The position numbers and the translations under genes are program-made. This document shows, in pieces, positions 5,026-33,532 of a DNA stretch of 64,000 nt. Below the pieces are notes generated by a model. That model did not search any database and had not been told where the DNA came from. It saw only the letters and a list, made by a program, of their open reading frames with translations. Where the stretch lies: NCBI GenBank assembly GCA_001464585.1, contig LNFF01000031.1, positions 67,148-131,147 on the forward strand. Direction: 5' to 3'. The DNA comes from Gammaproteobacteria bacterium Ga0077554. GTDB taxonomy: Bacteria > Pseudomonadota > Gammaproteobacteria > Ga0077554 > Ga007554. Position 1 is the first letter of the stretch. Each line of letters opens with the position of its first letter.

Positions 5026-5403
5026 TCATGACGCCATCAAATCCTCCACAGCCACGCCCAATACTCTGGATAGCGCGAGCAACACGCTGGCTTTACCTTC
5101 GTGCTTTCCCGACTCAATTTGTGACAGATAAGCTTGGCTGATGCCGGCCCGATCCGCCAGTGCGGAGACCGTCAGACGGCGGTGCTCCCGCCATACACGA
5201 ATAGGCGGCTCACCCTCCGCCAGACGGTGCGCAATGCTGGCGGGAACAAGCTCCTCCTCACCACGCTCCAGCCGCACCCGGATGCGGTCATAGTCCTGAA
5301 TATCCTCCAGCAGCTCGGCGCCCTCAATCAGTCGCTTGTATTCCGCATAGGGAATCACCGCATATTCAGGTTCGCCGTTACGCTCGATAATTTGTGCTTT
5401 CAT
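5026..5403 (-). CDS. XRE-family HTH antitoxin (HigA-like) of a type II TA pair
   Basis: C-terminal HTH (LTVSALADRAGISQAYLSQIESGK). Its ATG overlaps the stop of the upstream RelE/ParE remnant in an ATGA arrangement. Confidence 0.65.
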   Translation of the reverse strand: MKAQIIERNGEPEYAVIPYAEYKRLIEGAELLEDIQDYDRIRVRLERGEEELVPASIAHRLAEGEPPIRVWREHRRLTVSALADRAGISQAYLSQIESGKHEGKASVLLALSRVLGVAVEDLMAS

Positions 5404-5591
5404 CGCGTATACACCCCACCTCGCGGGGTCACTTTGATCACCATGATCACCAGCGCCCCACTATCCACCTCAAACACAATCCGCCAATCCCCTGCGCGCA
5501 TCCGGTAACTGGGACGCCCTTCCAGCTTGATGACATTGCGGTGCTGCGGCGTATTCGCGGGCTGATTTGGATGAGTTGTGTGCCAGATAAT
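5400..5591 (-). pseudogene. RelE/ParE-family toxin remnant, N-terminally truncated (no in-frame start codon)
   Basis: Hand translation of the minus strand gives ...HRNVIKLEGRPSYRMRAGDWRIVFEVDSGALVIMVIKVTPRGGVYTR*, a recognisable RelE/ParE C-terminal half. The frame is closed by a stop at 5592-5594 and contains no ATG/GTG/TTG upstream of the conserved region. Only about 14 nt separate it from the Uma2 stop. Confidence 0.5.
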
Positions 5592-5608
5592 TCAGTCAAA
5601 CCTGCCTG

Positions 5609-6238
5609 TCAGACATTCTCAAAGAACGCGGTCAGACGCACCTGAAACGCCATGCTCTGCAACTCGACCACGTCGTCTTTCCCAAAGTCATAAAGCGCCC
5701 AATGCCCGGTGCTGTCTCGCCTGAAGCAGTCGGCGCGGAGGCTGCCGGGGTCGATCAGCAGGTATTCCTCCAGCGTGGGGATTTGCCTGTAGATGGCGAA
5801 CTTGTCGCCTCTGTCGAAGGCGGCTGTGGAGTCGGAAAGTACTTCGACGATCAGCCTGGGGTGGCTCATGAACAGTTTGGCCTGGTGGTCGCGTTCGTCA
5901 CAGGTGACGAAGACATCCGGGTAGAAGAAAGCGTTCGCTGTTTCGACCCGGAGTTTCATGTCGGAGATATAGGCGCGGCAGGAGCCTGCGCGCAGGTGAT
6001 CTTTCAGCAGGGCAAACACATTCCCGGCGATTGTCACATGCGTCGTGCAGGGATGCGCAAGTGTCGCGGGAGGCAGGATGCCGGGAGCGACCTCGCGCCT
6101 GGCGCCGACCATGGCGAATACCTCGCCGTTGACATATTCATGTTTTTCGACCTGGGTGTTTTCCCATTCCAGGTAGTCGTCAGGCATCAGGTGTGCAACA
6201 GACTGTGGTAATCCCATTTTTAGACCCTTACTTTGCAT
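5609..6238 (-). CDS. Uma2-family (DUF820) PD-(D/E)xK endonuclease, carrying an in-frame 17-aa repeat-encoded insertion
   Basis: MPDDYLEWENTQVEKHEYVNGEVFAM...YPDVFVTC pattern of the Uma2 family. The REVAPGILPPATLAHPCTT segment is encoded by repeat copy 1. Confidence 0.65.
   Translation of the reverse strand: MQSKGLKMGLPQSVAHLMPDDYLEWENTQVEKHEYVNGEVFAMVGARREVAPGILPPATLAHPCTTHVTIAGNVFALLKDHLRAGSCRAYISDMKLRVETANAFFYPDVFVTCDERDHQAKLFMSHPRLIVEVLSDSTAAFDRGDKFAIYRQIPTLEEYLLIDPGSLRADCFRRDSTGHWALYDFGKDDVVELQSMAFQVRLTAFFENV
6041..6091. repeat. Dispersed 51-bp hairpin-containing repeat, copy 1, intragenic and in frame in Uma2, reverse orientation
   Basis: Sequence cgtcgtgcagggatgcgcaagtgtcgcgggaggcaggatgccgggagcgac. 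Reverse complement matches copies at 8541, 21014 and 22414. 51 nt equals 17 codons. Confidence 0.8.
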
Positions 6239-6371
6239 TTTCCGCCTGATCAGATAGGGGCGGAGGCAGTTTGAAATAAGTGTAACGTCAGTTTACGCCA
6301 ATCACCAGGGGAGATCGATCTGTCCATCCCGGGAAATTCTGAAAAATTCGTCGCTGACATTGACTTTATCT

Positions 6372-7619
6372 TTACGCTAGTTTCTCCGGAAAGAGTCCCG
6401 GCATCCAACGCGACGCGAGACTGGCGGGGAAGGCCAGACGCAAAGGGACGCGCGTGCTTTCGGAGACCAGTACACCGCGTTCGCTTAAAGCCGCCACGAC
6501 CCGCCGGGCATGTCGCTCACTCACTCCCAGTATGCCTGCCACATCGCTACGCGGCAGCGCTCCCCGGTATAAGATGGCCTCCAGAAGGCTGCCCGCTTTG
6601 GCTGGTAACGTGCCGCCACGGACTTCTTCTTCGACCCACATCAGGATGCGGGTACGCAGCCGATCCGGCTGAACCAGTTCTTCCATAAACTTTACCTGAT
6701 CAAGGCAGGTTTCGAGAAAGAATCGCGTGAAGGACACCAGCGCTTCCTCGCTCAGATTACCCCTGCCGTCCAAGTCATTACGCCGTTGTAAATCGCATTG
6801 CGCAAGATGATTCTTGTAGGTGCTCACATTTCGCGCCAGGCCGCGTGCGATGGACCAGACACCGCCAGTATCGAGAGCGTCCATCAACATCGCATGGGAC
6901 ATCAGGCGCGCCACGCGGCCATTACCATCAAGGAACGGGTGCATCCAAAGTAGTCGGTGATGCGCGGCAGCGGCAGCGATGATAATTTCCGCTTTGCCGA
7001 GATTGCTGTAAGCGCGCTCGAAATGATCAAGAAAGCGCGGCAGTGCGCCAGGGCTGACCGGTATGTGCTGGCCGACCCTGACATGGCGTTGACGCAGTTT
7101 GCCTGGAATGACCCGCAGACGCTCACCCGCGTCTGGATCGTCCGTCCATAGCAGAGCATCGGGCAGCAACTCACCAAACCGCCGGTGAATGTCACAGATA
7201 CCTGCAACACTGGCTGCATGACCACGTAGATTGCCTGCGTCGATCCATTGCTGAACAGCTATATGCGCCTTGGCTTCGAGTTGAAGGTTGCGCTTTTGCA
7301 CGTTGGTGCTGTAGTCGTTCTTCAGCGCGCGCTCGATATCGACCGGATGGGTGTCGTGACCCTCGATCAGGTTGCTGTAGTAACAGTTCATCGCCCGCAC
7401 CAGATCAGCCAGCGCCGTGAGCAGGCCTTGCGGAAGGCTGCGACGAAACCCTGCCGAATACGCCGCCAGCTCGACTGCAAGATCGGCAAGGTCGGCACGT
7501 TGGCGCGAGCTTTCAGCAATCCGCATTGGCTCCATGGAAGACACCCCCTCGCCGCTGTCGGGAGGCGCTGGGATGTCCGGCATTATGGCCGCTTTAATGT
7601 CCTCACAAAAATCCTTCAT
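6372..7619 (-). CDS. Fic-family protein (AMPylator/Doc-like) with an N-terminal inhibitory-helix-like motif and a C-terminal winged HTH
   Basis: HPFLDGNGRVAR Fic motif. SNLIEG matches the (S/T)xxxE(G/N) inhibitory motif. C-terminal region (VAGILGVSERHARRVVAALSERGVL) looks like a wHTH. Confidence 0.7.
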   Translation of the reverse strand: MKDFCEDIKAAIMPDIPAPPDSGEGVSSMEPMRIAESSRQRADLADLAVELAAYSAGFRRSLPQGLLTALADLVRAMNCYYSNLIEGHDTHPVDIERALKNDYSTNVQKRNLQLEAKAHIAVQQWIDAGNLRGHAASVAGICDIHRRFGELLPDALLWTDDPDAGERLRVIPGKLRQRHVRVGQHIPVSPGALPRFLDHFERAYSNLGKAEIIIAAAAAHHRLLWMHPFLDGNGRVARLMSHAMLMDALDTGGVWSIARGLARNVSTYKNHLAQCDLQRRNDLDGRGNLSEEALVSFTRFFLETCLDQVKFMEELVQPDRLRTRILMWVEEEVRGGTLPAKAGSLLEAILYRGALPRSDVAGILGVSERHARRVVAALSERGVLVSESTRVPLRLAFPASLASRWMPGLFPEKLA

Positions 7620-7817
7620 AATTATTATACTATCATGTATTTATAGTTTAGTTAATGGATTTTTAGGGTTATTTTGGCCGGTTAAAAGGCCGCTTATCAG
7701 GCCGCCTTGGCCGTCTCGCCTAGCCAGAATAGGAGCCTCTAGGCCAGGTGCCTTTTTGGTGCTGAAGCGGATTACATACAGGGCGTGTGACCTCTATCCC
7801 GCGTCTGCACCAACGTG

Positions 7818-9041
7818 CTAAATCAAACCCCGTGCCAGTCGCACTTTAATTCCGCCATTGCGCAGCGAAAATGAGGTATCCACCGTGAGACGTGTTTGCG
7901 CCAGCAATGCCTGGTCGTTGCATAGAATAGCCACGTGCCAACCGCGGCATTGGGTACGTAATACGTTACCGAGTTGCGCATAGAGATTACGCAGATCTTT
8001 ATTGCTGCTGACGCGCACGCCATACGGCGGGTTGGTGATGATCCAGCCGGGTGCGGTTGTCGGGCGAATCGCTGAGACCGCTTGACAGGTGAACTGTATG
8101 TGCTGCGCCACCCCGGCGCGTTCGGCGTTTTCCTGAGCCATGCGGACGGCGCCTGCATCCCGGTCGGAGGCGATAATCCGGCAACCCGGCGGTAATTCAA
8201 TTCTCATCGCCGCTTGGGATTCCGCCAGCAACGCTGTCCAGCGTTTTTCGTCAAAACCCGGCCAGTCCATAAACGCGAAGCGCCGCTGGCGGCCTGGGGC
8301 GGCGCCCAGCGCCAGCAGGGCGGCTTCGATGGGGACAGTACCCGAACCACAAAATGGGTCGATCAAGGGCGTTGCAGTGTCCCACGGCGCGGCCAGCAGC
8401 AATGCAGCGGCAAGGGTTTCACGCAACGGCGCCTTGGCGACGGCCTGACGATAGCCCCGGCGGTGCAGCAGTTCGCCAGACGAATCCACGCTTACGGTGC
8501 AATGATTATGCGACAACTGCACCACAACCAGTTGAGAAGGTCGCTCCCGGCATCCTGCCTCTGGCGACACTTGTGCATCCATGCACGGCGGATTGGTGGC
8601 CTCCTCGTCCCCCAGCTTCTGACGCACGATGGGTTTACCCAAGCTGTCGGCAATCGCACCGGCGATGCGCTCGGCTACGGCGTCGGCATGGTACAGCTTC
8701 GATGCTTTACAGGTGGCGCGAATCGCCACTGGTTGACCGGGCACCAGGTAGCGTTGCCAATCCAGACGGCTGGCTTTTTTGCGTAGTTCGGAAAATGCGG
8801 CGGCGCTGAAATCACCGACACGCACCAGCACACGGCTGGCGGTGCGCAGGTGCAGATTGGCGCGGTACAGGGCGTCCAGATCGCCCTGAAAGGCAACACC
8901 GCCCTGCTCTGCAGTGGGAAGTAGATTAAGACGCTGCAATTCCTGCGTGGTGAGCGCTTCACACCCCGGTGCAGTAACGGCAAAAAATGAATTCGCTCGA
9001 GATGCGGTATTAATGGTGGTGCCCACCATCGCCATGCACAT
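7818..9041 (-). CDS. rlmL: THUMP-domain class I SAM-dependent rRNA (guanine-N2) methyltransferase, RlmL-like, with an in-frame repeat-encoded insertion
   Basis: THUMP-like N-terminal region ending ...LHRRGYR, then the methyltransferase motifs DPFCGSGT and NPPYG. The track start at 9098 would overlap slyD; internal Met codons at 9041-9029 are more plausible but the start is uncertain. PPCMDAQVSPEAGCRERP is encoded by repeat copy 2. Confidence 0.6.
   Translation of the reverse strand: MCMAMVGTTINTASRANSFFAVTAPGCEALTTQELQRLNLLPTAEQGGVAFQGDLDALYRANLHLRTASRVLVRVGDFSAAAFSELRKKASRLDWQRYLVPGQPVAIRATCKASKLYHADAVAERIAGAIADSLGKPIVRQKLGDEEATNPPCMDAQVSPEAGCRERPSQLVVVQLSHNHCTVSVDSSGELLHRRGYRQAVAKAPLRETLAAALLLAAPWDTATPLIDPFCGSGTVPIEAALLALGAAPGRQRRFAFMDWPGFDEKRWTALLAESQAAMRIELPPGCRIIASDRDAGAVRMAQENAERAGVAQHIQFTCQAVSAIRPTTAPGWIITNPPYGVRVSSNKDLRNLYAQLGNVLRTQCRGWHVAILCNDQALLAQTRLTVDTSFSLRNGGIKVRLARGLI
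8541..8591. repeat. Dispersed 51-bp repeat, copy 2, intragenic and in frame in the rlmL-like gene, forward orientation
   Basis: Sequence gtcgctcccggcatcctgcctctggcgacacttgtgcatccatgcacggcg. Contains the GTGCATCCATGCAC palindrome and GTCGC...GCGAC complementary ends. Confidence 0.8.
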
Positions 9042-9504
9042 GACGATGGGCGATTTCTTCCACCGTGGCAGCCCGCACACCGACAATTTCCACTTCAAAC
9101 GTCAGCGTTTTACCTGCCAGCGGATGATTGGTATCAATGTCCAGCGTTTTCAATCCCGCCTTGATCACAATCGCCGGACGCGCGCCATGTTCAGTATTTA
9201 ATTGCACGACACTGCCGGGTTTGTAAGTGACTTTTTTCTTGCTGTCATTAATTACATGCTTGAGGGAGATGCGTTGCTGCGAGCCTTCTTGCCGCATGCC
9301 ATAAGCCTGCTCGGGCGTGAGTGTAACGCTCAACTGGTCACCCGCCTGTTTGCCCGCCATCGCATTTTCCAATCCCTGCAACATGCCTTGATACCCGTGC
9401 AAATAAACCACCGGGTTGCCTTTGCGTGAATCATCAATCACATCATGGCCGGGTTCGCTCATGCGGTAATGAAACGTCACGACTTTGTTTTTTTCAATTA
9501 ACAT
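9010..9504 (-). CDS. slyD: FKBP-type peptidyl-prolyl cis-trans isomerase SlyD with His-rich C-terminal tail
   Basis: MLIEKNKVVTFHYRM...GYQGMLQGLENAMAGKQAGD...HGDGGHHH. The second ATG at 9504 has a GGAGAA RBS. Confidence 0.8.
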   Translation of the reverse strand: MLIEKNKVVTFHYRMSEPGHDVIDDSRKGNPVVYLHGYQGMLQGLENAMAGKQAGDQLSVTLTPEQAYGMRQEGSQQRISLKHVINDSKKKVTYKPGSVVQLNTEHGARPAIVIKAGLKTLDIDTNHPLAGKTLTFEVEIVGVRAATVEEIAHRHVHGDGGHHH

Positions 9505-9807
9505 TGCTGCGTTCTCCAAAAAACCTGTAGTGTTATTTTGGGAGTGATTTTACTATGAAAACACGTGATCGGGGGGTGTGATATGCAAAATTTTGATTCC
9601 CATCCCTACAGGGCCAATAAGAAATCACTTGCGTCAATAATGCGGGGTAGACCACAGGAAGAAAAGGGGGATGGCAACCAATACAACCTCATGGTTGCGA
9701 AGACGTTCTTGCTGTTCATGGAAGCAGGAGGTGATCTGTAGGGTTCCTTATTATTTGCAAAAACTAATCTCTGCCTGCACTGAACATTTTAAAGAAAACA
9801 ATATTTA

Positions 9808-12282
9808 CTATTTATTTCTCTTCAATTTAAGCGGTTTATCCAGCTTGATTTTAATAAATTCACTGTCATCTGGCCTGGCTGGATCGAGGTGGCGACCCAC
9901 ACTGAACGGATAATTATTGTCATTGATCACGCCAATGGTATTTTTATCCAGCACCACTACATCTTCAATAGTGACAAAAGGAAAGGCAAAGTTAAATCCT
10001 GTGCCAATATCGCCGGGCTGTACTGGAAAGCTCAGATGATGTGGATCCTTGATATTCATCAGGTCGACGACTTCTTCTTTTTCAAGATATACGCCTGCAT
10101 CATCCATTTCGACCTTGAAAATCTTTTTGAAGCCATTCAAATCACCCTGGCTACCGTCACGCTCAATCACCAATCCCTCTTCTTCATTAAAAAGAATGAA
10201 ATCACCGATATTGGTACCGCGTGCATCCAGACGGTATTTGAACTGCCTGCCGGTGTAGGCCCGATCTTTAATATTGAACTCATGGATCAGCAGCGTTTTG
10301 GTATCATCACCTGCCAGTGGACGTTCCAGCAGAGGATAAAGCTTCTTGCCATTGCTGGATAGCGCCATGCCTTCAAACCCACCGCTACGCTCCACACGGA
10401 ACGGCGTGGCGTCTTTGGTTACACGATATGGCCAGGACAGGCCAGCCAACCATGGCGTATTACTGCCATGTTCATCTTGCAGATTGGTACCATCATCCGA
10501 CCCGGCGATGGAGGTATCTGCATAAATGGGAAAGTCACCGAAAAGAAATACGGTGCGAATCGCCGGATAGTGCTTGTGCACATGCAGCAAGGTACGGAAA
10601 TCAAAAGACTGTATATCAGCACGCGCTTCCAGACCATTGGTGGAAATCACTCCCGCCACTGCCGCTGTGAAGGGGCCATGTTCCGCCGTGCGATCAGCAA
10701 ATTCGCCACGCGGATTGGTTTTTGTTTCGATGTTATAACGTACTTTCTCGGCGTTTTTCCAACGTACACTGGCATCGGTATGGCTGCTACCGGGGCCGGT
10801 TTTATAATACGTAATGTAGAAATTAACGAAATCAAATAGCTGTTGCGTAGATGGCATGACATACGGATGCATCAAGCCGTGATGGGCGGCGAAAGCTACA
10901 GCTACCGGCGACATCGCCAAGTTGTTGGTTTGCTCTGGTCCGCGAAACACCTTGTCGCAAATAAATTGCGATTGTATCTGTGCCTGGGTTAGATCTTTAA
11001 CCAGCACTTGATCCGCCACGGTGTAGGGTGCACCATCTGCGCGGCGACATTTTTGTGCCTCAATATGCGGATCATGATCCAGCATGGGCACGGCGTCGGC
11101 ACTCACACCGTTATCTGTCTCCAAAGTAGTCATCAGATAGTCAAGCGCGGCTTCCATGGCCGGAAGTGTGTTTTCCGGGCGCAAATTGCGCGCGCCGCGA
11201 TGGCCTTGCGCGTCAAGCTTGTTGATGCTTATCAAACCATCGGCATTCAGAAAATCGCCGTGTATACCATCGCCATTGGCATCAAACTCGCGCGCGGCCT
11301 GTAACAGTAGATCAGGGCGGTCGGAGATGATGCCGTTTACACCGAGCTTCATCAGCTCCAGCATGCGCGCCTTGTCGTTGACCGTCCAGGTCACCACCGG
11401 AAAGCCCGCGCTCTGAATGGATTTGATATTGAATATTTCGCTGGATGCAGCGGCAAGACCCGACCCAGCAGGTGGCGTTTTTCGGTTTTCCACAAACGTA
11501 TTAGCATTGTTGTCATCCAGCATCACATGCCAGGGGGAAAATACTACTTTTCGGTTTGCACCATGCGCATTGGCGTGTGCACGCACGGCGTTCATAACAC
11601 GTACTGCGCTACTTTCTTCACTCAAGGGATTTTGTGGGGAACGTAATTCTTTGCCAGGATTTGAAAAATCCGGCAAGGCAATCGGCGCTTCCAGTACCTT
11701 TCCCCTGGCATCGGCATGAATCAGAAACGGCCCAAATTCCTCACCAAACCAGAGCGTGCCATCTGCTGCCTTCTGCATGGATTCAATGTCAAAGTCCGCA
11801 CCCGTCAGCACACGTTTTTCGGAAAAATGATGGGTAATGGCAAAGGGGATTTTACGGTCAGGATCGTGTAACTCAAAAAACCCCAACACATCTACGCTTC
11901 CATCACCGCGTTGCCTGGCATCACCGCGTTGCCTGGTGTTACCGCCTTGTTTGGTCTTGAAGTGCGGGCGAACATGATAAACACGCAAATGATAATCGGC
12001 GGAGTTTTCCAGACTGCCGAAACCATTGTCTGACATGACCAGGAATGTACCGTCCTGGTTATTATGGACAGCAGAAAACCCTTGCACGGGTTGCTTGTTG
12101 ACAAAAGGTGCGCTAACGCCATTGGCGCCACCGCCAATAAATTGTCCCGATGTGGGGCCAGATGCAAACGTGCTTGCTGGCAATACCGCACGACCCTCTA
12201 GCTTATCTGCGGCAATGCCCTGCGCGGGAATCCCCATCGCCAACATTATCAACAAATACCGTTTGTTTCTTTTGCCAATCAT
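9808..12282 (-). CDS. Secreted multidomain glycerophosphodiester phosphodiesterase (GP-PDE) with phytase-like esterase domains
   Basis: Signal-peptide-like N-terminus (MIGKRNKRYLLIMLAMGIPAQGIAA). Central HRGARNLRPENTLPAMEAALDY...MLDHD GP-PDE signature. C-terminal ...GVINDNNYPFS phytase-like region. Start at 12282 with GGAGG RBS, not the upstream ATG at 12324. Confidence 0.6.
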   Translation of the reverse strand: MIGKRNKRYLLIMLAMGIPAQGIAADKLEGRAVLPASTFASGPTSGQFIGGGANGVSAPFVNKQPVQGFSAVHNNQDGTFLVMSDNGFGSLENSADYHLRVYHVRPHFKTKQGGNTRQRGDARQRGDGSVDVLGFFELHDPDRKIPFAITHHFSEKRVLTGADFDIESMQKAADGTLWFGEEFGPFLIHADARGKVLEAPIALPDFSNPGKELRSPQNPLSEESSAVRVMNAVRAHANAHGANRKVVFSPWHVMLDDNNANTFVENRKTPPAGSGLAAASSEIFNIKSIQSAGFPVVTWTVNDKARMLELMKLGVNGIISDRPDLLLQAAREFDANGDGIHGDFLNADGLISINKLDAQGHRGARNLRPENTLPAMEAALDYLMTTLETDNGVSADAVPMLDHDPHIEAQKCRRADGAPYTVADQVLVKDLTQAQIQSQFICDKVFRGPEQTNNLAMSPVAVAFAAHHGLMHPYVMPSTQQLFDFVNFYITYYKTGPGSSHTDASVRWKNAEKVRYNIETKTNPRGEFADRTAEHGPFTAAVAGVISTNGLEARADIQSFDFRTLLHVHKHYPAIRTVFLFGDFPIYADTSIAGSDDGTNLQDEHGSNTPWLAGLSWPYRVTKDATPFRVERSGGFEGMALSSNGKKLYPLLERPLAGDDTKTLLIHEFNIKDRAYTGRQFKYRLDARGTNIGDFILFNEEEGLVIERDGSQGDLNGFKKIFKVEMDDAGVYLEKEEVVDLMNIKDPHHLSFPVQPGDIGTGFNFAFPFVTIEDVVVLDKNTIGVINDNNYPFSVGRHLDPARPDDSEFIKIKLDKPLKLKRNK

Positions 12283-12621
12283 ATTCACCTCCCAAAGATT
12301 GTGAGTTTCTGAATCGTAAATCATCCAGAAAAAATCCTAGCAAGTAAATATGGCAAGATGATGAAGGTTTCGTGAAGCAATTGCGTCACTGAATTTTTAG
12401 AGTATGGTACACACAACTACCATTAAACCAGTGGGTGTTACTTGAACATGAACCCAATCAATTAATTATTATGTGCTGGAACCCGCCATTTTTCATAGGT
12501 TTCAATAGCGTGTACTCGTTGAAACTATCCGCCTGAACTTTTGAACTAAATGGCAGCCCCCTATGCCTTATAAAAATCGGAATCATTGAAGATAACCCTG
12601 ACATTGCGAACTTATCCAGGA

Positions 12622-13848
12622 CTATCTCAAACTCTTCGAATCCACCACTCGCTGAATCACCGCAACCGCTTCATCAATCTGCTCTTTGGTGACGACCAGC
12701 GGCGGCGCCAGACGCACGACGGTACCATGTGTATCTTTACTCAACACGCCACGGCTCATCATTTCTTCGCAAACATCACGCGCAGTACAATAGACTGGAT
12801 CAATCTCGACACCAATCAGCAGTCCCTTGCCGCGCACCGCCTTGATAAGTGGGCTGTGCAAGGTGCGCAAGCGTTCCATGAAATACTCACCTAACGTCGC
12901 AGCACGACCAATCAGGTCTTCCTCGACCAATACATTGAGCGCTTCCAGCCCCACGGCGGCGGCGAGAAAGTTGCCGCCAAAGGTGCTGCCATGATCACCG
13001 GGATTAAACACGCCCATCACTTCCTTGCGCGCCAGAAACATTGAGACAGGCAATAAACCACCGCCGATAGCTTTACCTAAAATAACGCCATCAGGTTTAA
13101 CGCCGTCATGCTCGCACGCCAGCAAGCGTCCAGTGCGCCCCAGGCCGGTTTGCACTTCATCGCAAATCAACAGAACATTGTGCTCACGGCAAATACGTGC
13201 ACACTCTGCCAGATAACCGGGCGGTGGCACGACGATGCCGCCTTCACCCTGGATGGGTTCTACTAAAAAAGCCGCAGTATTCGGCGTAATTGCAGCGCGC
13301 AAGGCGGCGGCGTCGCCATACGGCACATACTTGAACCCGGCAGGAAACGGGCCAAAACCGTCACGGTATTGCGGCTCGGTGGACATGCCGACAATAGCGA
13401 TGGTGCGGCCATGAAAATTGCCGTTGCACACGATAATTTCAGCCTGATCTGCCGCGACCCCTTTTACTTTGTACGCCCACTTGCGCACGGTCTTCAACGC
13501 GGTTTCCACCGCCTCTGCGCCGGTATTCATGGGAATGGCAAGATCCTGGCCGGTGAGCGTGCAGGCGCGTTCCAGAAATGGCCCCAGCGTATCACTGTAA
13601 AACGCACGCGAGGTAACCGCCACGCGACCCAACTGGCGTGTCAACGCCGCGACCAGGCGCGGGTGTAAATGGCCGTGGCTTACCGCCGAATAGGCGCTCA
13701 TCATGTCGAGATAACGCTTGCCTTTATCATCCCACACATATACACCTTCGCCACGCACTAACATCACCGGCAAGGGCTCATAGTTATGGGCGCTGTAACG
13801 GCGTTCCAGATCCATCGGGCTCATCTTTGAAGCCATCTTTGGGTTCAT
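12622..13848 (-). CDS. rocD: Ornithine--oxo-acid aminotransferase (class III PLP aminotransferase)
   Basis: YLDMMSAYSAVSHGH, PLP-lysine region ICDEVQTGLGRTG...LGKAIGGG. Start overlaps the arginase stop in an ATGA arrangement. Confidence 0.7.
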   Translation of the reverse strand: MNPKMASKMSPMDLERRYSAHNYEPLPVMLVRGEGVYVWDDKGKRYLDMMSAYSAVSHGHLHPRLVAALTRQLGRVAVTSRAFYSDTLGPFLERACTLTGQDLAIPMNTGAEAVETALKTVRKWAYKVKGVAADQAEIIVCNGNFHGRTIAIVGMSTEPQYRDGFGPFPAGFKYVPYGDAAALRAAITPNTAAFLVEPIQGEGGIVVPPPGYLAECARICREHNVLLICDEVQTGLGRTGRLLACEHDGVKPDGVILGKAIGGGLLPVSMFLARKEVMGVFNPGDHGSTFGGNFLAAAVGLEALNVLVEEDLIGRAATLGEYFMERLRTLHSPLIKAVRGKGLLIGVEIDPVYCTARDVCEEMMSRGVLSKDTHGTVVRLAPPLVVTKEQIDEAVAVIQRVVDSKSLR

Positions 13849-14747
13849 CGGCCACCTCCTGTAAAAAACTCTTCAATCAAACGCGTAATTACCCGCGCCG
13901 TTTTATCATCATGATCTCGCGCAGGATTAAATTCGGCAATTTCAATACCCAGTAAACCGGGCTTGGCAGACAGCGGCGCCAACGCTTGCAGTAAATCAGC
14001 CGCAGCGATACCGCCAGGCTCGGGCGAGCCTACGCCGGGGGCATCGAGAGGATCAATTGCATCCAAATCTATCGAGACGCCAAACCGCGTTGTGCCCCGC
14101 GAAATCAATTCATACGCTTCGTTCATCACCGTCGACAAACCGCGCTCGCGCACTTCATCCATGAAATATACCCGTACTTTATGCTGCCGCAAAAACGCGG
14201 CTTCAGTAGATTCGTAACTGCGCACGCCGATCACGCATACATGTTCAGCGAATAATTTCGGGCCAGCAAATTGCACGCTACTCAGACGCGCATCACCATA
14301 GCCCAGTAAACTGGCCAGCGGCATGCCATGCACTGCACCGCTGGTACTGGTCTCGGGGGTATGGCTGTCCATATGCGCGTCGATCCAGATCAACCCCAAT
14401 GGACGGCGATTAGGCAGGGTCGCTACGGCGCCACTCCAGGTGCCAATCGCACAGGAATGATCGCCACCCAGCACCGCAAACGGCGTACCCGCCTGCATCG
14501 CAACCATGACTTCTGCGGCAAGTCGTTGGCATAAATCGGCAATGACATCATAGGCGTCCGTCAGCAGCGGGGTTTGCTGCGGATATAAAATAGCCTGCCA
14601 CACCGCCTCGCAACCAGCGGCGCACAAGGTGCGCTGCAAACCCATACCGCGTAACAACTCCGGCCCCACGCCACAACGTGGATCCCGTGCGCCCAAACCC
14701 GAAGCAGCGCCCAGCAATCGCAGATGAGGGTATAGCGTGGTAGACAT
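13845..14747 (-). CDS. Arginase/agmatinase-family ureohydrolase
   Basis: GGDHSCAIG, DAHMD and SIDLDAIDP manganese-binding motifs of the arginase family. Confidence 0.7.
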   Translation of the reverse strand: MSTTLYPHLRLLGAASGLGARDPRCGVGPELLRGMGLQRTLCAAGCEAVWQAILYPQQTPLLTDAYDVIADLCQRLAAEVMVAMQAGTPFAVLGGDHSCAIGTWSGAVATLPNRRPLGLIWIDAHMDSHTPETSTSGAVHGMPLASLLGYGDARLSSVQFAGPKLFAEHVCVIGVRSYESTEAAFLRQHKVRVYFMDEVRERGLSTVMNEAYELISRGTTRFGVSIDLDAIDPLDAPGVGSPEPGGIAAADLLQALAPLSAKPGLLGIEIAEFNPARDHDDKTARVITRLIEEFFTGGGR

Positions 14748-14925
14748 AACGGCCTCTGTATATGAGGTTATCGGCCGGGTAAGCTCAAGTAATTAGACAC
14801 CTCATCTGCTGTGAAATTCATATTAAAAAATCATGATTTACAAAAACTGTGACGCACTTAACGGTAATTTTCATAGCGCCGCCTTACACTGGCTATACCC
14901 AATAATTTTTTAAGGAGCGGCCGCC

Positions 14926-15306
14926 ATGCACACAAAAATATCAAGCTCACTCTACCTCTGGATTCTCGCTCTCAGCATGGCCTCGCCCGTGATGGCTGGC
15001 GAGGCCGTTGACGCCTTGGACAGCGCCCGCGCGGGTGATTACACCCAGGCTGCCGCCGCCATTAAACCTCTGGCGATTGGCGGCAATCCACAGGCGCAGT
15101 TCAATCTTGCCCTGCTGTATCACAGCGGCGCGGGCATCAGCCAGAATGAAGTCGCGGCAGTTGTGTGGTATCACAAAGCCGCCGAAAACGGCTCTGTAGA
15201 AGCCCAGGAATTTTTAGCGGCGGGTTATGCAGAAGGCTGGTTTGGCTTAAAACGTGATGTGGAAAAAGCGAAATACTGGGATACACAATCTCAATCAAGT
15301 CATTGA
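14926..15306 (+). CDS. Sel1-repeat (TPR-like) secreted protein
   Basis: Signal peptide followed by Sel1-like repeats (AQFNLALLYHSGAGISQNEVAAVVWYHKAAENGSVEAQEFLAAGYAEG). Confidence 0.6.
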   Translation: MHTKISSSLYLWILALSMASPVMAGEAVDALDSARAGDYTQAAAAIKPLAIGGNPQAQFNLALLYHSGAGISQNEVAAVVWYHKAAENGSVEAQEFLAAGYAEGWFGLKRDVEKAKYWDTQSQSSH

Positions 15307-15350
15307 CGATTTATAGATAAATTTATACACGTAAGCCAGGATAGCTTTCT

Positions 15351-16250
15351 CTATACTGGCTTTTTTGCACGTGCCACCGGCATGTTCTTGCCCACCGCCA
15401 CAATCACTACCATGATCACCGCAAATACCAGTATTGTCCCCGTCACTGATTCACCAAACAACAGGCCAGCCGCTGCCAGTGTTAAAAACGGCTGTAAAAG
15501 CTGTATTTGCCCCACCCGCGCCACACCGCCCAGCGCCATGCCGTGATACCACAAAAAAAATGCCAGCCACTGGCTGATCACACTCACATAGCCAAACCCC
15601 AGCCACGCTGACCACGGCACATTAAAATCCTGCCGCCACGCTACCCATCCCACTGGCACCAGCAGCAGCGGTGCCGCGATCACCAGTGCCCAGCAGATCA
15701 CCTGCCATCCCCCCAGGATATGCGCCAGCCGCCCGCCTTCGGCATATCCCAAAGCCACAGCGGCAACACCTGCCAATAACAACAAATCGGCCACCTGCAA
15801 CTGCCCTGCGCCGGAAATGAACGCAAATGTAATCACCACTGCACCGCCCAGTATACTGGTCAGCCAGAATCCCAGCGAGGGTCGCTCGCCCGTGCGAAAT
15901 ACCGCTGCAAGGGTGGTTGCCAGTGGCACGATGCCAATCACGATTGCGGCGTGTGCGGCAGGTACATCACGCATCGCCCAAGATGATAACAACGGGAAAC
16001 CGACAATCGCACCCGCAACCACAATCAGCAAGCCCTTGAGGTGCTGGCGTGCAGGCCATGCCTGCCGCGTCACTGCCAATAACATCGCCGCCAGCACAGC
16101 GGCCACCAACGCCCGCCCCAATCCCACCAGCACCGGGTCAAAATGCGCCACTGCCACCCGCGTAGCGGGCAAGGTGAGGCTAAACCCAACCACGCCCCAG
16201 AAACCATACCACAGCCCACGCGTTTCCGTAATGATTGCAGCGCTTTTCAT
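15351..16250 (-). CDS. DMT-superfamily (EamA-like) permease
   Basis: Ten-helix hydrophobic profile with duplicated EamA-like halves. ATG at 16250 with GAGGA RBS is preferred over the TTG at 16289. Confidence 0.6.
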   Translation of the reverse strand: MKSAAIITETRGLWYGFWGVVGFSLTLPATRVAVAHFDPVLVGLGRALVAAVLAAMLLAVTRQAWPARQHLKGLLIVVAGAIVGFPLLSSWAMRDVPAAHAAIVIGIVPLATTLAAVFRTGERPSLGFWLTSILGGAVVITFAFISGAGQLQVADLLLLAGVAAVALGYAEGGRLAHILGGWQVICWALVIAAPLLLVPVGWVAWRQDFNVPWSAWLGFGYVSVISQWLAFFLWYHGMALGGVARVGQIQLLQPFLTLAAAGLLFGESVTGTILVFAVIMVVIVAVGKNMPVARAKKPV

Positions 16251-16667
16251 ACAGCTATCCTCATCAAACACATATTTATAAATAGCCAAGTTACGCCGAG
16301 GGCAAGCGCCAGCACAGACTCAAAACCGGGAATATGATACGTTACAGCGTACCTCTATTATAAATCCGCTGAAGCTGCGATGGTGGATTTATAGAGGTGC
16401 CCTACAGTTTTGTAAAAAATATAAATGTAATCATCCTGTCACATTGAAGATGTGTTTTACTTAACCCTTCCCAGCTATCATTTTTACGCACCTGCACATC
16501 CATGGAAAGCATAGGCGGGTACCTTGATTTTATCCATAAATTACAGGATATCGCAGCAACGCTACTGCATGAAAATTTTGAACGGGTATTAAAATGATTT
16601 ACAATTTTAGCACGAGTGAAGTAAAGCATAATGCTGCGGTGAGCCAACGCCTTGTGGACTAAATATC

Positions 16668-17618
16668 TTATTCGCGGTAGATGGTGACCCGATTTCGACC
16701 GTTGGCTTTGGATTGATAGAGCGCAGTATCCGCCCGCCGGATCAATTCTTCGTAGCAGGGAATACCGGGCACCCATTGTGACACACCCAGGCTGATGGTA
16801 ACGGGCAACGCCAAATCACCGAAGGTTATGGGGTTGGATCCCATGGCATGGCATAAACGCTCGGCAACGATTAAAGCGCCCTCCAGGGGCGTCTCCGGGA
16901 GCACAACGGCAAATTCTTCGCCGCCATAGCGGGCAAAAGTGTCGACATCACGCAGACATTCGCGCAGGCGTTTGGCAGTATTGCGTAACACTTCGTCCCC
17001 CGCCAAATGACCATGGACATCATTGACGCGTTTGAAGTGGTCGATATCAAGCATGATCAGCGACATCATACTGCCATAGCGTTGCGCGCGGCTGAACTCC
17101 TTATTCACTAGCTCTTCCAGATAGCGGCGGTTGTGGATCCCGGTCAGACCATCGCGATTGCTGGCCTCGGCGAGCGATTTCAAGGCGCTTCTGAGCATGC
17201 GTTGCGTGATACTGGTATCGGTCACATCGAAGAGCGTAATACACACATAGGCAACTTCATCATCTGCGTCTTTCATCGGCAGAAAGGTGCAGTTTTGGTA
17301 CATGGCGTCAATGCCGCCGGTCACAGGACGGTTGTGGCGAAAGTGAAACAAATAAGGCCGTTGTTCCCACGAAGTGAAGGAAAAATTCTTGATCACAAAA
17401 ACATTCGTGATTTTACGTTGCAGCCAGGTAACCGGTAATTCCGGGAAACTCTCGAACAGATTATGGCCCACCACCTCAGCAGCGGAACGACCACTGTTGG
17501 TTTCCATGAAGCGATTCCACAGCACGACATTCATGTCACGATCAACAACGAAAACGCCGACACTCACCCGGTCAACGATGAAGCCAAGCAATTCCGGTGA
17601 TGGCGTGGGGCGATCCAT
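16668..17618 (-). CDS. PAS-GGDEF diguanylate cyclase
   Basis: N-terminal PAS-like region, RYGGEEFAVVL active-site motif and upstream inhibitory-site-like RRAD. Confidence 0.7.
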   Translation of the reverse strand: MDRPTPSPELLGFIVDRVSVGVFVVDRDMNVVLWNRFMETNSGRSAAEVVGHNLFESFPELPVTWLQRKITNVFVIKNFSFTSWEQRPYLFHFRHNRPVTGGIDAMYQNCTFLPMKDADDEVAYVCITLFDVTDTSITQRMLRSALKSLAEASNRDGLTGIHNRRYLEELVNKEFSRAQRYGSMMSLIMLDIDHFKRVNDVHGHLAGDEVLRNTAKRLRECLRDVDTFARYGGEEFAVVLPETPLEGALIVAERLCHAMGSNPITFGDLALPVTISLGVSQWVPGIPCYEELIRRADTALYQSKANGRNRVTIYRE

Positions 17619-18232
17619 TACACCGCTGCCATGAGACGCTCCAGCGACTCCCGCAGTGACTCAATGCCCTCTTCGGCCATGAGGATCAGTAAATGGCTTT
17701 TGAAGTTACTGTTTTCGAGAGTGAAATTGACCTCAACCAGCAGACTGTATTCCCAGGCCAAATTTTCTGGCACCAACACCCTATCCAGCGACGCGTATTC
17801 AGCCATGATGGAGGGCGGATAAAAACTGATATCGGCCTGGAGTTGCGCTCCGATGCCACTGATGCAAGCGCCGATCAGGATATTGCCGACATCAAGCAGC
17901 AACTCTTGTTCGCCGAGGGCGTCCAGATCGGTGGCGTAGCCCATGAGTACAGCAAGATCCAGACAGCCACTGGCGCCAAACAACACAATAGCCTCGCCGC
18001 GCAGGTGATCGTAAAACGATTGGCGCACGGCGGTGATGGCTTCGCGATCATTCACCATGGCGCGAACAGTCTTGACGATTTCCGAAACATGCACCAGACG
18101 AATGCGGGGCACTGAGAGTTCGACGAACACGTCCAGGGTACGCGCCAAACGGTCACCCGCCTGCCCCATGGCGATATTGACGACTTCCTGCAGGGCATCC
18201 GATTGGTCGGTGGTCAGTGGTGCTATGCTCAT
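17618..18232 (-). CDS. CheC-like (CheC/CheX family) phosphatase-domain protein
   Basis: Two CheC-like halves: SDALQEVVNIAMGQAGDRLARTL and LLDVGNILIGACISGIGAQL. Translationally coupled to the flanking genes. Confidence 0.55.
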   Translation of the reverse strand: MSIAPLTTDQSDALQEVVNIAMGQAGDRLARTLDVFVELSVPRIRLVHVSEIVKTVRAMVNDREAITAVRQSFYDHLRGEAIVLFGASGCLDLAVLMGYATDLDALGEQELLLDVGNILIGACISGIGAQLQADISFYPPSIMAEYASLDRVLVPENLAWEYSLLVEVNFTLENSNFKSHLLILMAEEGIESLRESLERLMAAV

Positions 18233-18594
18233 AGTATCCCGTAGTCCTTCAATACCTTCGCCACTTGTTCAGTGCTGACTGGTTTCTTGAGAAACGCGAT
18301 AGCACCCATCGACCGCACCCGCTCCTGGGCCTTGGGTTGGATGTCGGCAGAAACCACGATCACAAAACTGTTCAGCCCTTCACGCTTTAAATGTTCCAGC
18401 ACCTCGTAGCCATCCATAACCGGCATGGTCAAATCCAGGAACATGACATGCGCCTTGCCGGCGCGGCAGGCGTCCAAAGCCTCCACACCATTGGACGCCT
18501 GCGTGACTTCAACATTCCAGTCCGGCGGCAATGCTTTGATTATCAGCTTACGCGACAACGAGGAATCGTCGACTATAGTGACCGGTGTTGACAT
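18229..18594 (-). CDS. Stand-alone CheY-like response-regulator receiver domain
   Basis: IVDDS...MFLDLTMPVMDG...VSADIQPK...FLKKP. Acidic pocket, phospho-acceptor Asp and conserved Lys present. Confidence 0.75.
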   Translation of the reverse strand: MSTPVTIVDDSSLSRKLIIKALPPDWNVEVTQASNGVEALDACRAGKAHVMFLDLTMPVMDGYEVLEHLKREGLNSFVIVVSADIQPKAQERVRSMGAIAFLKKPVSTEQVAKVLKDYGIL

Positions 18595-18751
18595 TCAGAT
18601 AGACCCCGTCCTTAGTGAAATTCCAGTGTAGACACAATCCTGGCAAACCTCTATGTGCATAGGTAACGGCTTCATCCCAAAAAAGTTGAGCGGGTCTGTC
18701 CAGCCCCATACGCATTTGCGCCAGGTCCTATCCCACTGTTGCCCACCGTTA

Positions 18752-21700
18752 TCAGGCGCGCTGTTTCAGCGAGAGAAGACGATCCAGCGGACAGGGCTTA
18801 TCTATGGCATACCCTTGCGCGTAGTCGACACCAATCTCGCAAAGCAGGTTGAGAATTTTGTCGTTTTCGACATATTCCGCCACCACTTTTTTATTCATGA
18901 AATGTCCAACCTCACAGATCGATTTTACCAACGCATAGTCGATGGAATTGACTTCCATATTTCTTACAAATACGCCGTCGATTTTAATGAAATCAACCGG
19001 CAAATTTTTAAGGTATGCATAGCTTGACATGCCACTTCCAAAGTCATCCAGCGCAAACATACAACCCGTTTTCTTAATCTCCGTTATAAATGCCGCCGCA
19101 TCCGAAAGATTGGTAATGCCGGCAGTTTCCGTGACCTCAAAACATATTTTATGCTGCGGGATCTGCGTGTTATTCATCTGCTCAAGGACAAAACCTATAA
19201 AGCTATCGTCGGTGATGCTTTGGCCTGAAAGATTGATGGTAAAAGCGGTAATATCCTCAAGGGCCTCGCGATGGTCCGCCATCCACTTAAAAACCTTTGT
19301 AATTACCCAGCGGTCCACTGCCGCCATACGCCCATACCATTCTGCCGCCTGTATGAATTCATGGGGAGATATAATATTTTTCTGGTCTTCCGCGACGCGC
19401 AGGAGTATCTCAAAATGGGGTTGTACCGAGGTGTCTCCATTAATCGGGACTATGCGCTGGCAGAAAAGTAGCAGGCGGTCTTCCTCCAGGATCCTGTCGA
19501 TTTTCCCCACCCATTTCATTACCGCGCTGTGCTGAACCAACTGGAAATTGTCAGCATGGTAGACTTGTAACCGGTTGCCTCCAGCAACTTTAGCAAGATT
19601 GCAGCTCGACTGTGCTGCCTGTAACAATTCTGTAATGTTATTACCGTGCGTATCCACCGGAACCAGCCCCATGCTCAGGGACACCGAAAAACGTTTGTCC
19701 TCCCACTCAAAGCGATAACCAGCAACGGCGTTAATCTGTTGCTCGGCAATAGCCCGTGCATCATCGGGAGAGGCGTTCTCCACAAGCATGCCGAACTCAT
19801 CACTACCCAGCCGCGCCAGCACGCCTCGGCCACTCAGCGTTTTCTTGAGTAACGCCGCCAGCTCCTTGAGCAGCGTATCACCGCCCACAGACCCGCAACT
19901 GTTATTGACCGCGCTGAACTTATCCACATCAACAAGACACAGCACATGTCGCAGACCGATCTGCTGCGCGCTCACCACAGCTTTGCCCAGCATGGACTCA
20001 AATTCCCGCCGGCTTATCAAGCCTGTCACCTGATCGTGGGTGGTTTCATAGAGCAGTTGCTTATGCAACTCCTGCAGTGCCGTATACTGCGCGCGATCCA
20101 TCGCCAGATCATCGGCATTGTCCAAGGGTATGGCATTGCCCAGACGCATTTTCCTGGCAAGATCCTTCGCACCAAGCACCTTCTCCTTCAGCCCCCGGGA
20201 ATTCACGAATACATAGACACCGCTGGTGGACTTGCTGACCCACGCAACCCGGAGCCGCTGCGCTTTTTCCTCATGCGTCAAAAACAGCATCCAGTCCCCT
20301 TCCTTGAGGCGGCGCGCTTGCTTCAACCACTTTTTCCATATCACATCGGCAGGATCTTCTGCGCTTTCTGGTTCATCGCCCCACTCTGCAACCACAGGGA
20401 CTTTCTCACATACCGTGACCACGTCCTTCACATTCTCTGCATAGGCCTTATCCTGCGCCTGGGTCAGCTTGTCCAACTGTACCAGAATCTTCGAAAATAC
20501 CTCGGAAGTGCCGTCGAACTCCTTGTTAATCCGGTCTATCAGACGGTCAATCGTATTCTTGATCGGGCTCTGGCTGGAACCAGTCTGTTCATTATCATGA
20601 ATTTCCAGTTGAGCAATCTTGTTTAGCACCTGGCGCGCGACATGGGCCCTGTCAAGAAACACTGTATTGTCCGCAAGGGTCAGCTTGAGAATAGGCAACT
20701 CGAGCCGCTTGAGCCAGGGTCTCACGCTCTCAGCGACGAGTGGATCATCCTGAATAGCATGAAAAAGATCACCAGCAACTTCCATGACACTGCTGTCATG
20801 TGCGCTGATCTCTTTATCAGCGCTTCCTGGATTAGCACGTTCCAGAACAGCGCGAACAAGGGATTTGATGTTTCTGGGCGCATTATTGCCAGCGATCTGA
20901 TCACTGTAATCTGCTTGCAAGCTGGCCAAAGCCGAAATGACATCCGAGACTGCGTATACCTGGCCGGGTGGCTGCGTTGATGGTGGCGGCTCACGATATG
21001 GCATTTGCACATCCGTGTGCGGCGGTCGCTCCCGGCATCCTGCCTCCCGCAACACTTGCACATCCGTGTGCGGCGCAAATACAGTTTCCGTCGGGCGCGA
21101 CACCTGATGCGCAACACCATCCCGAAGTCTGCGTATCTCGTGAGAGACCTGATATAGATTGCGTCCTCCCGGGCCAGCATTCCCAGTGATATTCGGGGGG
21201 ACATGCGGGGACGGCGCTACATCTCGTGGTGGCGCCGTATTTTCCCTAAGCACCCTGGATTTGAGATCGGGCAATACACCGAAGTCTACCAGGACAGCGT
21301 TGAGTTTTTGGTAAAGATCATTTGTTTTTTCAACAAGCACATCCTTGAAAACAGCGAGGCAGGCCGTGTTAGCCACCGGATCCAACCCCAGGGGTTTAAT
21401 GGCACTCAAGAAAGACTCTACAAAAAGGCCGGGGCCATAAGGGTTGTTATCTTTACCAATCGGTACATTACATACCATGGAGAGGCGTTGCTCTATCGCA
21501 AAGAGCAATTTCTTGTGCGTGGACTCAACATTGTAGTTAATATCCGAAATGGATAACCAGTCGGTCAGCGCATCATCTTCGACCAGCGACAACTCAGACA
21601 TGGGCACGCCATTTTTATCAGACGTTGCCTTCGATTGTGCTCTCAGTTGTTTGGGGGCAATATTTGCCAGGCGCTTATGGACGGCGACACGGAAAAGATC

Positions 21701-22413: not shown

Positions 22414-22565
22414 GGTCGCTTCCGGCATCCGACCGCCATGGATGGCGGAAGTGTCGAAAATGCAGGAGCATTTTTTCGACCTGCCTCTGGCGACACTTGT
22501 GCATCTCGGCAACTGCTCCTGCGTTGCTCTACCTTCCGCCATCCCTGGCGGTCGCATGCACGGCG
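22414..22565. repeat. Dispersed repeat, copy 4: composite of about 150 bp with two extra hairpin-containing segments nested in the unit
   Basis: ggtcgcttccggcatcc ... ctgcctctggcgacacttgtgcatc ... catgcacggcg, interrupted by segments containing ccgccatggatggcgg and ccgccatccctggcgg palindromes. Lies at or just upstream of the 5' end of the large c-di-GMP gene. Confidence 0.7.
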
Positions 22566-33044: not shown

Positions 33045-33112
33045 TTTTTGGCTCGCTTTTTCTGAGTTGCATGATACGTGGGTGTTAAAACGCCTCTGCA
33101 AATGACCACTTT

Positions 33113-33153: not shown

Positions 33154-33175
33154 ATTCAAAAGAAAGGAAATAAAA

Positions 33176-33508: not shown

Positions 33509-33532
33509 TCCGATGCCTAGGTAAGCAACCGA

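Follow-up and report, generated by a model that had tools for sequence, protein, structure and literature searches.

Introduction

Palindromic repeats that colonise genes in frame have so far been treated as a curiosity of Rickettsia and of a few families of repetitive extragenic palindromic (REP) sequences. The Rickettsia palindromic elements (RPEs) lie in frame in unrelated housekeeping genes, to which they add a peptide while the protein is kept (PMC10969869, PMC3733652). Among the REPs tagged with GTAG or CGTC, a minority is intragenic, with a bias towards DNA repair genes (uvrA, recB, polA), and a degenerate GTMG form of the GTAG tag is described (Di Nocera et al. 2013; PMC3733652). Occasional in-frame fusions with host open reading frames (ORFs) are also on record for QMITE of Coxiella, ERIC and the Nezha-type miniature transposable elements with inverted repeats (MITEs) (PMC10969869, PMC5896051). 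Here we analyse a 51-nt element found in a stretch of 64,000 nucleotides (hereafter the window) from Gammaproteobacteria bacterium Ga0077554 (assembly GCA_001464585.1, contig LNFF01000031.1, positions 67,148 to 131,147). The contig comes from an activated-carbon (water filter) metagenome (PRJNA301005), and its closest relatives are gammaproteobacterial metagenome-assembled genomes (MAGs) that are themselves rich in the element. The comparison with relatives supports the view that the element is a mobile DNA repeat and not a protein motif.

The element resembles the RPEs as an in-frame palindromic insert in genes, and for the RPEs, too, the transposase is not known. The likeness is functional only. 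RPE-1-type elements measure about 100–150 bp and are restricted to the obligate intracellular Rickettsia, whereas the present element is 51 nt long, is carried by at least about 70 mostly free-living gammaproteobacterial genomes and, unlike the RPEs, forms tandem and nested arrays. With REPs and bacterial interspersed mosaic elements it shares short GC-rich hairpins, a high copy number, covarying stems and the occurrence of dimers and clusters, and like the intragenic REPs it is found in repair genes, namely those of UvrA, RecG, MutL, PolA and a UvrD/PD-(D/E)XK helicase-nuclease. However, REPs are single hairpins of 20–40 nt that are overwhelmingly extragenic, whereas this element is a fixed 51-nt pair of different hairpins with about half or more of its copies in genes. 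Its GTCG start fits the GTMG form of the REP tag but is paired, whereas the REP tag is unpaired. Moreover, a system of REPs and REP-associated tyrosine transposase (RAYT) has a flanking RAYT gene, whereas none is flanked by the element in about 0.95 Mb of loci. QMITE, ERIC and the Nezha-type elements are likewise small non-autonomous repeats with in-frame host fusions, but they have terminal inverted repeats (TIRs) and usually target-site duplications (TSDs), and they are mainly intergenic, with in-frame copies as the exception.

No description of the element's DNA or peptides was found in Rfam or in the literature searched, nor was its sequence found in the supplementary lists of the REP survey (PMC3733652, text). 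A search with Rfam 15 at gathering score over the window returned only two tRNAs. The 51-nt element appears to be undescribed.

Copies of the Element in the Window

The exact 22-mer GTCGCTCCCGGCATCCTGCCTC occurs in the window at positions 6070-6091 (minus strand), 8540-8561 (plus strand) and 21025-21046 (plus strand). None of 100 dinucleotide-preserving shuffles contained a match to it, even at three mismatches. Starting and end points of the full copies were delimited by sequence reading and profile search, which gave three intact copies of what we call family A. The first (6041-6091, minus strand) lies in a gene of the Uma2 nuclease family (5609-6238, minus strand; Pfam PF05685, E = 1.9e-34), where it is translated as VAPGILPPATLAHPCTT. 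The second (8540-8590, plus strand) lies antisense to its host, the gene of a THUMP/class I S-adenosylmethionine-dependent RNA methyltransferase of 407 aa (RlmL-like; 7818-9041, minus strand; Pfam RlmL_1st/THUMP/UPF0020), and is translated as PCMDAQVSPEAGCRER; the identical protein P0001 is annotated as a gene in public assemblies. The third (21025-21075, plus strand) is translated as ..LREAGCRERP.. in a PilZ-DUF1631-GGDEF-EAL protein gene (18752-22378, minus strand; assigned with Pfam, start near 22378 from the alignment with P0241). Its 5' side is abutted by a partial unit (21002-21024, plus strand), which consists of the second-hairpin module only and yields a duplicate peptide, PHTDVQ.

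The preliminary description had listed these three copies, and all are real, but its second copy was off by 1 nt and its third was placed about 11 nt too far to the left, as the interval 21014-21064 straddles the partial duplicate and the true copy. It had also regarded the hosts as genuine family members, which the Pfam assignments bear out, and the frames that it gave are the ones used: the Uma2 gene reads the reverse-orientation copy as given above, while the RlmL-like and GGDEF-EAL genes share the frame ..EAGCRERP.

Three intact copies do not exhaust the window, which contains four more members. A decayed 51-nt copy of about 80% identity (33850-33900, minus strand) is present in the csoS2 gene (33614-35890, plus strand), where it is translated as DAQGKASVAGSRMSEAT in the disordered N-terminal linker. 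A 42-nt copy with a 9-nt internal deletion (40743-40784, minus strand) is present in an 81-aa ORF (40615-40860) directly after a ParA/McdA-like gene in the carboxysome locus; this ORF is termed McdB-like by its position and composition only. A third frame, ..AQG.ASVAG.., is the one read in CsoS2 and in the McdB-like ORF. A composite of 151 nt (22415-22565, plus strand) is intergenic; since the GGDEF-EAL gene starts near 22378, the composite lies upstream of the gene and is non-coding. It is a family A copy split by two units of a sister family, C, one inverted (22430-22480) and one direct (22506-22554), each in the loop of one family A hairpin, and the whole folds as a long hairpin (z = -7.9). 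A copy of another sister family, B (61964-62012, minus strand), has two CATCCATG-looped hairpins and lies about 55 nt downstream of a racemase gene, outside any supported gene; the overlapping 149-aa ORF has no Pfam match. Overall, 5 of the 7 copies are intragenic. Perfect hairpins of the form stem-ATCCNT-stem number seven in the window against 0.46 expected.

Empty Sites and Orthologs

The contig L115 is syntenic with the window (RlmL-Fic-Uma2), and the element is absent from both its Uma2 and its RlmL gene. The filled and the empty Uma2 sites differ by exactly 51 nt (...GCGCGA|GGTCGC...CACGAC|GCATG...), and there is no TSD beyond an ambiguity of 1 nt (G); the RlmL site behaves alike. Judging from the 185-aa ortholog in L115, the true start of the Uma2 gene in the window is probably at 6217.

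Among the orthologs of RlmL, the 17 aa are absent from P0005, P0007 and P0009 (80–87% identity), in-frame partial deletions of the insert are seen in P0003, P0008 and P0010, and in P0002 (L117) a second 51-nt element is nested in the loop of the first. Likewise, the CsoS2 orthologs P0122, P0124 and P0126 (77–86% identity) are without the 17-aa segment. For the GGDEF-EAL protein, the only relatives are P0241 and P0242 (59–68% identity), in which most of the segment is absent, and at that distance the ends of the insertion are not fixed. As the insertions in Uma2 and RlmL are of exactly 51 nt without TSD, and relatives lack the segment, the segment is inserted DNA and not a shared protein motif. 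The ortholog comparison proposed in the preliminary description therefore shows inserts that are polymorphic among relatives of RlmL, Uma2 and CsoS2, and the shared protein motif that would have spoken against a mobile repeat was not borne out. An in-frame, stop-free DNA repeat in genuine genes, the feature on which that description had based its likeness to the RPEs, is thereby supported.

It had also placed the RlmL insert in the linker between the THUMP and methyltransferase domains. This agrees with the AlphaFold2 model of the RlmL-like protein, in which the insert-bearing linker (residues 144-163) has a predicted local distance difference test score below 50.

A separate case was seen in the RlmL ortholog of MAG GCA_031421115.1 (L116, 8230-9462). 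This gene has no insert at the site occupied in the window, and at a second site it has one of 29 aa (..QGSTSAGRFQHPVSGDTHAPGRMPEASAR..) that nested copies of the element apparently make up.

Structure and Covariation of the Element

The family A consensus is GTCGCTCCCGGCATCCTGCCTCCCGCGACACTNGTACATCCCTGTACGTCG, that is, 51 nt or 17 codons, with the layout 5'-GTCGC-TCCC-GGCA-TCC-TGCC-TCCC-GCGAC-ACTN-(4-bp stem)-ATCCNT-(stem)-NNCG-3'. The boundaries are sharp: information content is at background on both sides, with an abrupt rise from position -1 to 50 (112 copies). A length of 51 nt was found in 75 of the 76 distinct copies, the remaining one (L027) having a 1-nt deletion. Folded as single-stranded DNA, the canonical copies form two hairpins, GTCGC-TCCC-GGCA-TCC-TGCC-TCCC-GCGAC at positions 1-29 and GYRC-ATCCNT-GYRC at positions 34-47, with z between -3.2 and -3.6. 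The two halves are directly similar to each other, so that the unit resembles two REP-like modules joined head to tail.

The GTCGC and GCGAC segments had been taken for complementary ends of the element. Instead, the two segments form the closing stem of the first hairpin (element positions 1-5 and 25-29), and the 3' end is formed by the second hairpin and NNCG. The ends, GTCG... and ...NNCG, are direct and not inverted. The initial GTCG, whose invariance was set by the search pattern, is not unpaired but pairs with CGAC at positions 26-29.

As the search pattern fixed the sequence of the first hairpin, the covariation evidence covers the second hairpin only. There, 98.4% of cells are paired and 57 cells are changed on both sides, a result reached by none of 500 shuffles; the compensatory stem variants include GTAC, GTGC/GCAC, GCAC/GTGC, ATAC/GTAT and GTCC/GGAC. 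The highest mutual information was obtained for alignment columns 40-51, 41-50 and 39-52. Columns 36 and 56 (element positions 31 and 51) also covary (C-G in 56 copies, T-A in 17, other in 3). Column 56 is the element's terminal nucleotide; column 36 is the second of the four nucleotides before the hairpin foot, of which the next two are coupled more weakly.

In its palindromic make-up the element thus agrees with the REP likeness suggested earlier, as both of its parts are short stem-loops. It does not agree with the alternative of a classical MITE, having neither TIR nor TSD, and it is not predominantly extragenic as REPs are.

Arrays, Nested Copies and Sister Families

Head-to-tail arrays with zero spacing were observed in L097 (three units), L089, L049 and L094, besides the partial-plus-full pair of the window. 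Inverted self-insertions fall into a hot spot of 3 nt (model positions 26-28) in L012, L044, L071, L096 and L106. On the strand of the inserted copy, they lie directly 3' of GTCG or GGCG, with the site in L071 3 nt further on; this motif is the same as the element's own 3' end. Tandem and nested copies taken together place the element directly after the 3' GTCG or GGCG of a resident copy, or after its internal GTCG. Immediately 5' of the element, G is found in 79% of copies and YG (a pyrimidine, then G) in about 78%. Inspection led us to reject CRISPR repeats, integron attC sites and dif-like sites as candidates: unique spacers are missing, tandem units abut with a period of 51 nt, and none of the consensus signatures is present.

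The sister families B and C share with family A the GTCG start, the ACTT spacer, the second hairpin looped by ATCCNT and the length of 51 nt, and their units insert into the loops of family A hairpins.

Two further repeats are associated with the element. A composite of more than 150 nt, with the 51-nt unit as its core and extra CATCCNTG-looped hairpins on both sides, is present in L014, L023, L037, L038, L053, L065, L066, L092, L101, L105 and L112, in many near-identical copies in several Chromatiales and Pseudomonadota MAGs. Another repeat of about 45 nt (GGCCCAGGCCAGCCTCTCGACCGG..CCGGTCTCACCTTCTCC) lies in the loop of the second hairpin of the element in L016 and L050 and adjoins copies of the element in L011 and L081.

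Distribution Among Genomes

The degenerate 22-mer was scanned against a collection with one genome per species. At least 112 loci were found in at least about 70 species-level assemblies (counted by contig prefix), so the phenomenon, which the preliminary description had proposed to follow beyond the window, spans many genomes and is not peculiar to one. The carriers are mostly Gammaproteobacteria: Acidiferrobacterales, Chromatiales, Ectothiorhodospiraceae, Thiohalophilus, Sulfuricaulis and Sedimenticola, as well as a Solemya symbiont, Methylomonas rosea, M. defluvii, Halomonas casei, Gilvimarinus, Parendozoicomonas and Lysobacterales. Nitrosomonas eutropha is a carrier too, and so are the MAGs GCA_020053945.1 and GCA_031421115.1. 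The 22-mer is identical across distant orders. A few matches belong to MAGs that bear other labels and may have been mis-binned, and one of the listed loci, L026, matches by chance in coding sequence. In the plasmid collection there was a single match, of 85% identity, inside a DNA primase coding sequence annotated by RefSeq on a plasmid of Lonsdalea populi. No copies were found in IMG/VR viral contigs, GenBank phages or 5,426 E. coli genomes.

Host Genes and Reading Frames

Among the 92 copies with enough flanking sequence, 51% lie in stop-free stretches of at least 300 codons, compared with 70% of random positions in the same loci; for stretches of at least 200 codons the values are 64% and 83%. 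Strong Pfam domains were detected in the element-spanning frame of 27 out of 30 sampled ORFs, often on both sides of the insert. The hosts in repair and replication are UvrA, RecG, MutL, DNA polymerase I (PolA), the UvrD/PD-(D/E)XK helicase-nuclease and NrdA. Other housekeeping hosts are ClpB, a class I tRNA synthetase, CysN/C, GlgB, a Mur ligase, PcnB, SufB/D, PurD, MnmA, ferrochelatase, GcvT and E1 dehydrogenase; HsdS was found among others. Three Methylococcaceae genomes, two of them from Methylomonas species and the third a MAG, have an orthologous copy in the E1 dehydrogenase gene, as a single unit or as two in tandem. In the cases examined, the inserts sit in linkers or variable regions.

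In the larger set, too, the element is mostly free of stops, and copies persist in genes as additions of 17 aa. For four of the six frames, 95% or more of the copies are open, and 37 of 76 copies have all six frames open, compared with 6% of composition-matched shuffles. Frame usage was counted for copies in ORFs of at least 150 codons. The Gly/Ala/Ser-rich frame DVQGCTSVAGGRMPGA is used by 27 copies and the Pro-rich frame VAPGILPPATLVHPCTS by 16, followed by RSRHPASRDT.. (9 copies) and ..VSREAGCRER (6 copies); the two frames that often carry a stop, SLPASCLPRH.. (5 copies) and the very basic RRTGMYKCRGRQDAGSD (3 copies), are the least used. Uneven usage of this kind would be expected if purifying selection had acted on random insertions. 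Copies persist in genes because their length is 3n, they are largely free of stops, and the survivors are in loops or linkers. Since the same nucleotides are conserved whatever frame reads them, the constraint acts on the DNA and not on the peptide.

The genes for the type I restriction-modification methylase HsdM in three distant genera (Nitrosomonas eutropha, Halomonas casei and Parendozoicomonas; L046, L087, L093) hold one in-frame copy each; the three copies share a C-terminal loop region, but their exact residue varies slightly. The pattern suggests independent hits in a permissive loop, or gene transfer.

Possible Mode of Transposition

The reading that we favour, with moderate confidence, is a non-autonomous 51-nt element, similar to REPs or to the palindrome-associated transposable elements (PATEs) of the IS200/IS605 family, that would be moved as single-stranded DNA by a tyrosine transposase of the HUH (histidine-hydrophobic-histidine) type. 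The enzyme, a Y1 transposase of RAYT or IS200/IS605 type, would act in trans, recognise the two CATCC(N)TG hairpins, which resemble each other, as the left and the right end, and cut behind the terminal CG. The coupling of the nucleotides 5' of the second hairpin to the last nucleotide would then represent a pairing of guide and cleavage site as in IS608. The 3n, stop-free design would be an adaptation of the element to mostly coding genomes, and selection would subsequently retain only insertions at permissive positions and in tolerable frames.

Subterminal hairpins, the lack of TIR and TSD, insertion 3' of a short motif and the pairing of guide and cleavage site known from IS608 are hallmarks of IS200/IS605 elements. 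The present element has subterminal hairpins at both ends (positions 1-29 and 34-47) without TIR, shows no TSD at the two empty sites, follows a short motif (YG) in about 78% of copies and shows covariation between foot and terminus. From the two subterminal hairpins, the missing TIR and TSD, the target motif resembling the element's own end and the covariation, we infer single-strand transposition by an HUH (Y1) enzyme as the likely route; this mechanism is known for IS200/IS605 and has been proposed for REP/RAYT. Unlike IS200/IS605 elements, it has a target motif of about 2 nt, a left end without guide signal and no tnpA parent that was found. The target motif of the IS200/IS605 family is typically 4–5 nt long, and the PATEs known to us are far longer than 51 nt.

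Several results weigh against this reading. The target motif (YG) is weak. The mutual-information ranking, with the alignment inspected by eye, gave no guide-like covariation at the left end: T at column 12 goes mostly with a flanking G, and no left-end pair is near the top of the ranking. The coupling of columns 36 and 56 may in part reflect descent of subfamilies rather than independent events. There is no orientation bias relative to the host genes (30 same, 36 opposite), a count that is uninformative on the replication strand. All-against-all BLASTP of the ORFs of the 112 loci found no gene family recurring next to the copies, the largest cluster of neighbours being GGDEF proteins at 7 of the 112 loci, and no transposase was found among the window ORFs tested. 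Screening of about 0.95 Mb of loci for HUH/Y1 motifs by regular expression gave a single RAYT-like ORF (L052, 5328-5988), and this gene is flanked by an unrelated palindromic repeat, not by the element. Finally, a metagenome scan for left ends without the usual right half gave, among the matches listed, no full-length parent; of the 10 loci, one was a nested and one a truncated copy, the others being point variants (A to G). Neither a cognate Y1 transposase nor a full-length parent was found next to copies or in these matches.

Movement by other machinery is the next candidate, and a rather unlikely one: a serine, tyrosine or DEDD (IS110/IS1111-type) recombinase acting at hairpins, a reverse-transcriptase route, or slippage and gene conversion after rare transfers. 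It would accord with the cognate enzyme not having been found and with the clustering of insertions in the hairpin loops and stems of other copies, as IS1111-type elements also target hairpin-like structures; moreover, one versus two tandem units in the Methylomonas E1 dehydrogenase gene fits slippage. However, IS110-type elements are autonomous, we know of no 51-nt derivatives of them, and two similar subterminal hairpins, combined with stem covariation, no TSD and insertion beside a motif that resembles the 3' end of the element itself, form the signature of IS200/IS605 and REP elements.

We consider it improbable that the element is a motif functional for the host, such as a hairpin for mRNA stability or termination, a structured RNA or DNA site or a protein-binding site, kept by selection. 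Compensatory changes do preserve the second hairpin, the 22-mer is the same in distant orders, and many classical REPs act as RNA elements (PMC3733652). Nevertheless, both orientations relative to transcription are about equally common, copies at orthologous sites decay by in-frame deletion, presence or absence is polymorphic among close relatives, no Rfam family matches, and the interiors of housekeeping enzymes are unexpected places for regulatory hairpins.

A classical MITE, that is, an internally deleted DDE-type insertion sequence with TIRs, moved by cut-and-paste with a TSD, is very improbable. The element is small, dispersed, non-coding by itself and present in high copy number, as such a MITE would be, but its ends (5' GTCG ... 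NNCG 3') are not reverse complements, the two empty sites show no TSD, and both zero-spacing head-to-tail arrays and duplication-free nested insertions are observed. Practically negligible is a conserved 17-aa motif or domain of unrelated proteins, for which only the recurrence of peptides such as ..VAGGRMPGAT.. and VAPGILPPATL.. in many proteins would speak, and which is refuted by the empty sites in close orthologs and by the reading of the same DNA in at least five frames or orientations and also between genes, with conservation and sharp boundaries at the nucleotide level and no Pfam family covering the segment.

Beyond transposition by a single-strand enzyme, we tentatively propose a wider picture. 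Families A, B, C and others may together be a superfamily of hairpin transposons that has not been described before, 51 nt (17 codons) long, largely open in all six frames and spread over many gammaproteobacterial orders. Its members would have evolved compatibility with translation and would enter housekeeping genes (those for DNA repair, replication, translation and carboxysome proteins) and intergenic DNA with about equal ease. The driving enzyme would be a single-strand transposase with specificity for CATCC(N)TG hairpins. If true, this would be a widespread and ongoing source of loop insertions in bacterial proteins. A nearly identical 22-nt core is found inside essential genes of sulfur oxidisers, methanotrophs, a nitrifier and Halomonas and on an enterobacterial plasmid. 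For annotation, it follows that 17-aa inserts of the recurring kinds named above are derived from a repeat and are not protein motifs. For protein evolution, the copies supply loop insertions that are natural and dated, both in enzymes that have been studied well and in disordered proteins of the carboxysome (CsoS2, McdB). For the biology of mobile DNA, they present a minimal two-hairpin substrate whose enzyme can be searched for by phylogenetic profiling, and with them one can ask whether mobile elements adapt to gene-dense genomes by evolving a length of 3n and a sequence free of stops.

The genome of L052 also carries a separate system of REPIN type. At 5326-6114 of this locus, a RAYT-like Y1 transposase gene with the HLH and YIHFNPV motifs has complex palindromic repeats of about 110 nt on both sides.

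Other Features of the Window

A complete alpha-carboxysome locus extends over positions 31620-44053 of the window. It comprises genes for CbbL, CsoS2, CsoSCA, three CsoS1 paralogs in tandem (38119-39186), a ferritin-like protein, CbbQ, a McdA-like ParA (39944-40618) followed by the small McdB-like ORF, and a CbbO-like VWA protein. Two intrinsically disordered proteins of this locus, CsoS2 and the product of the McdB-like ORF, hold decayed copies of the element.

On the far side of the composite repeat, as seen from the GGDEF-EAL gene, two tRNA genes (22860-22933 and 23008-23097, both minus strand) follow at a distance of about 300 nt. At 25632-25778, a MITE-like unit of 147 nt with 30-nt TIRs (90% complementary) was found a short way upstream of the gene for an SbtA-type bicarbonate transporter (25875-26879); this unit belongs to a family distinct from the 51-nt element. 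A perfect inverted repeat of 30 nt with a 6-nt loop is located in an AT-rich spacer (43% GC) at 2369-2434, upstream of the paralogous genes 2690-3610 and 3989-4810, which are similar to FeeM/GNAT N-acyl-amino-acid synthases and share repeated 5' segments. A hairpin with 23-nt arms (87% complementary) and a 25-nt spacer at 45060-45130, between convergent genes, looks like a terminator or another repeat of REP type.

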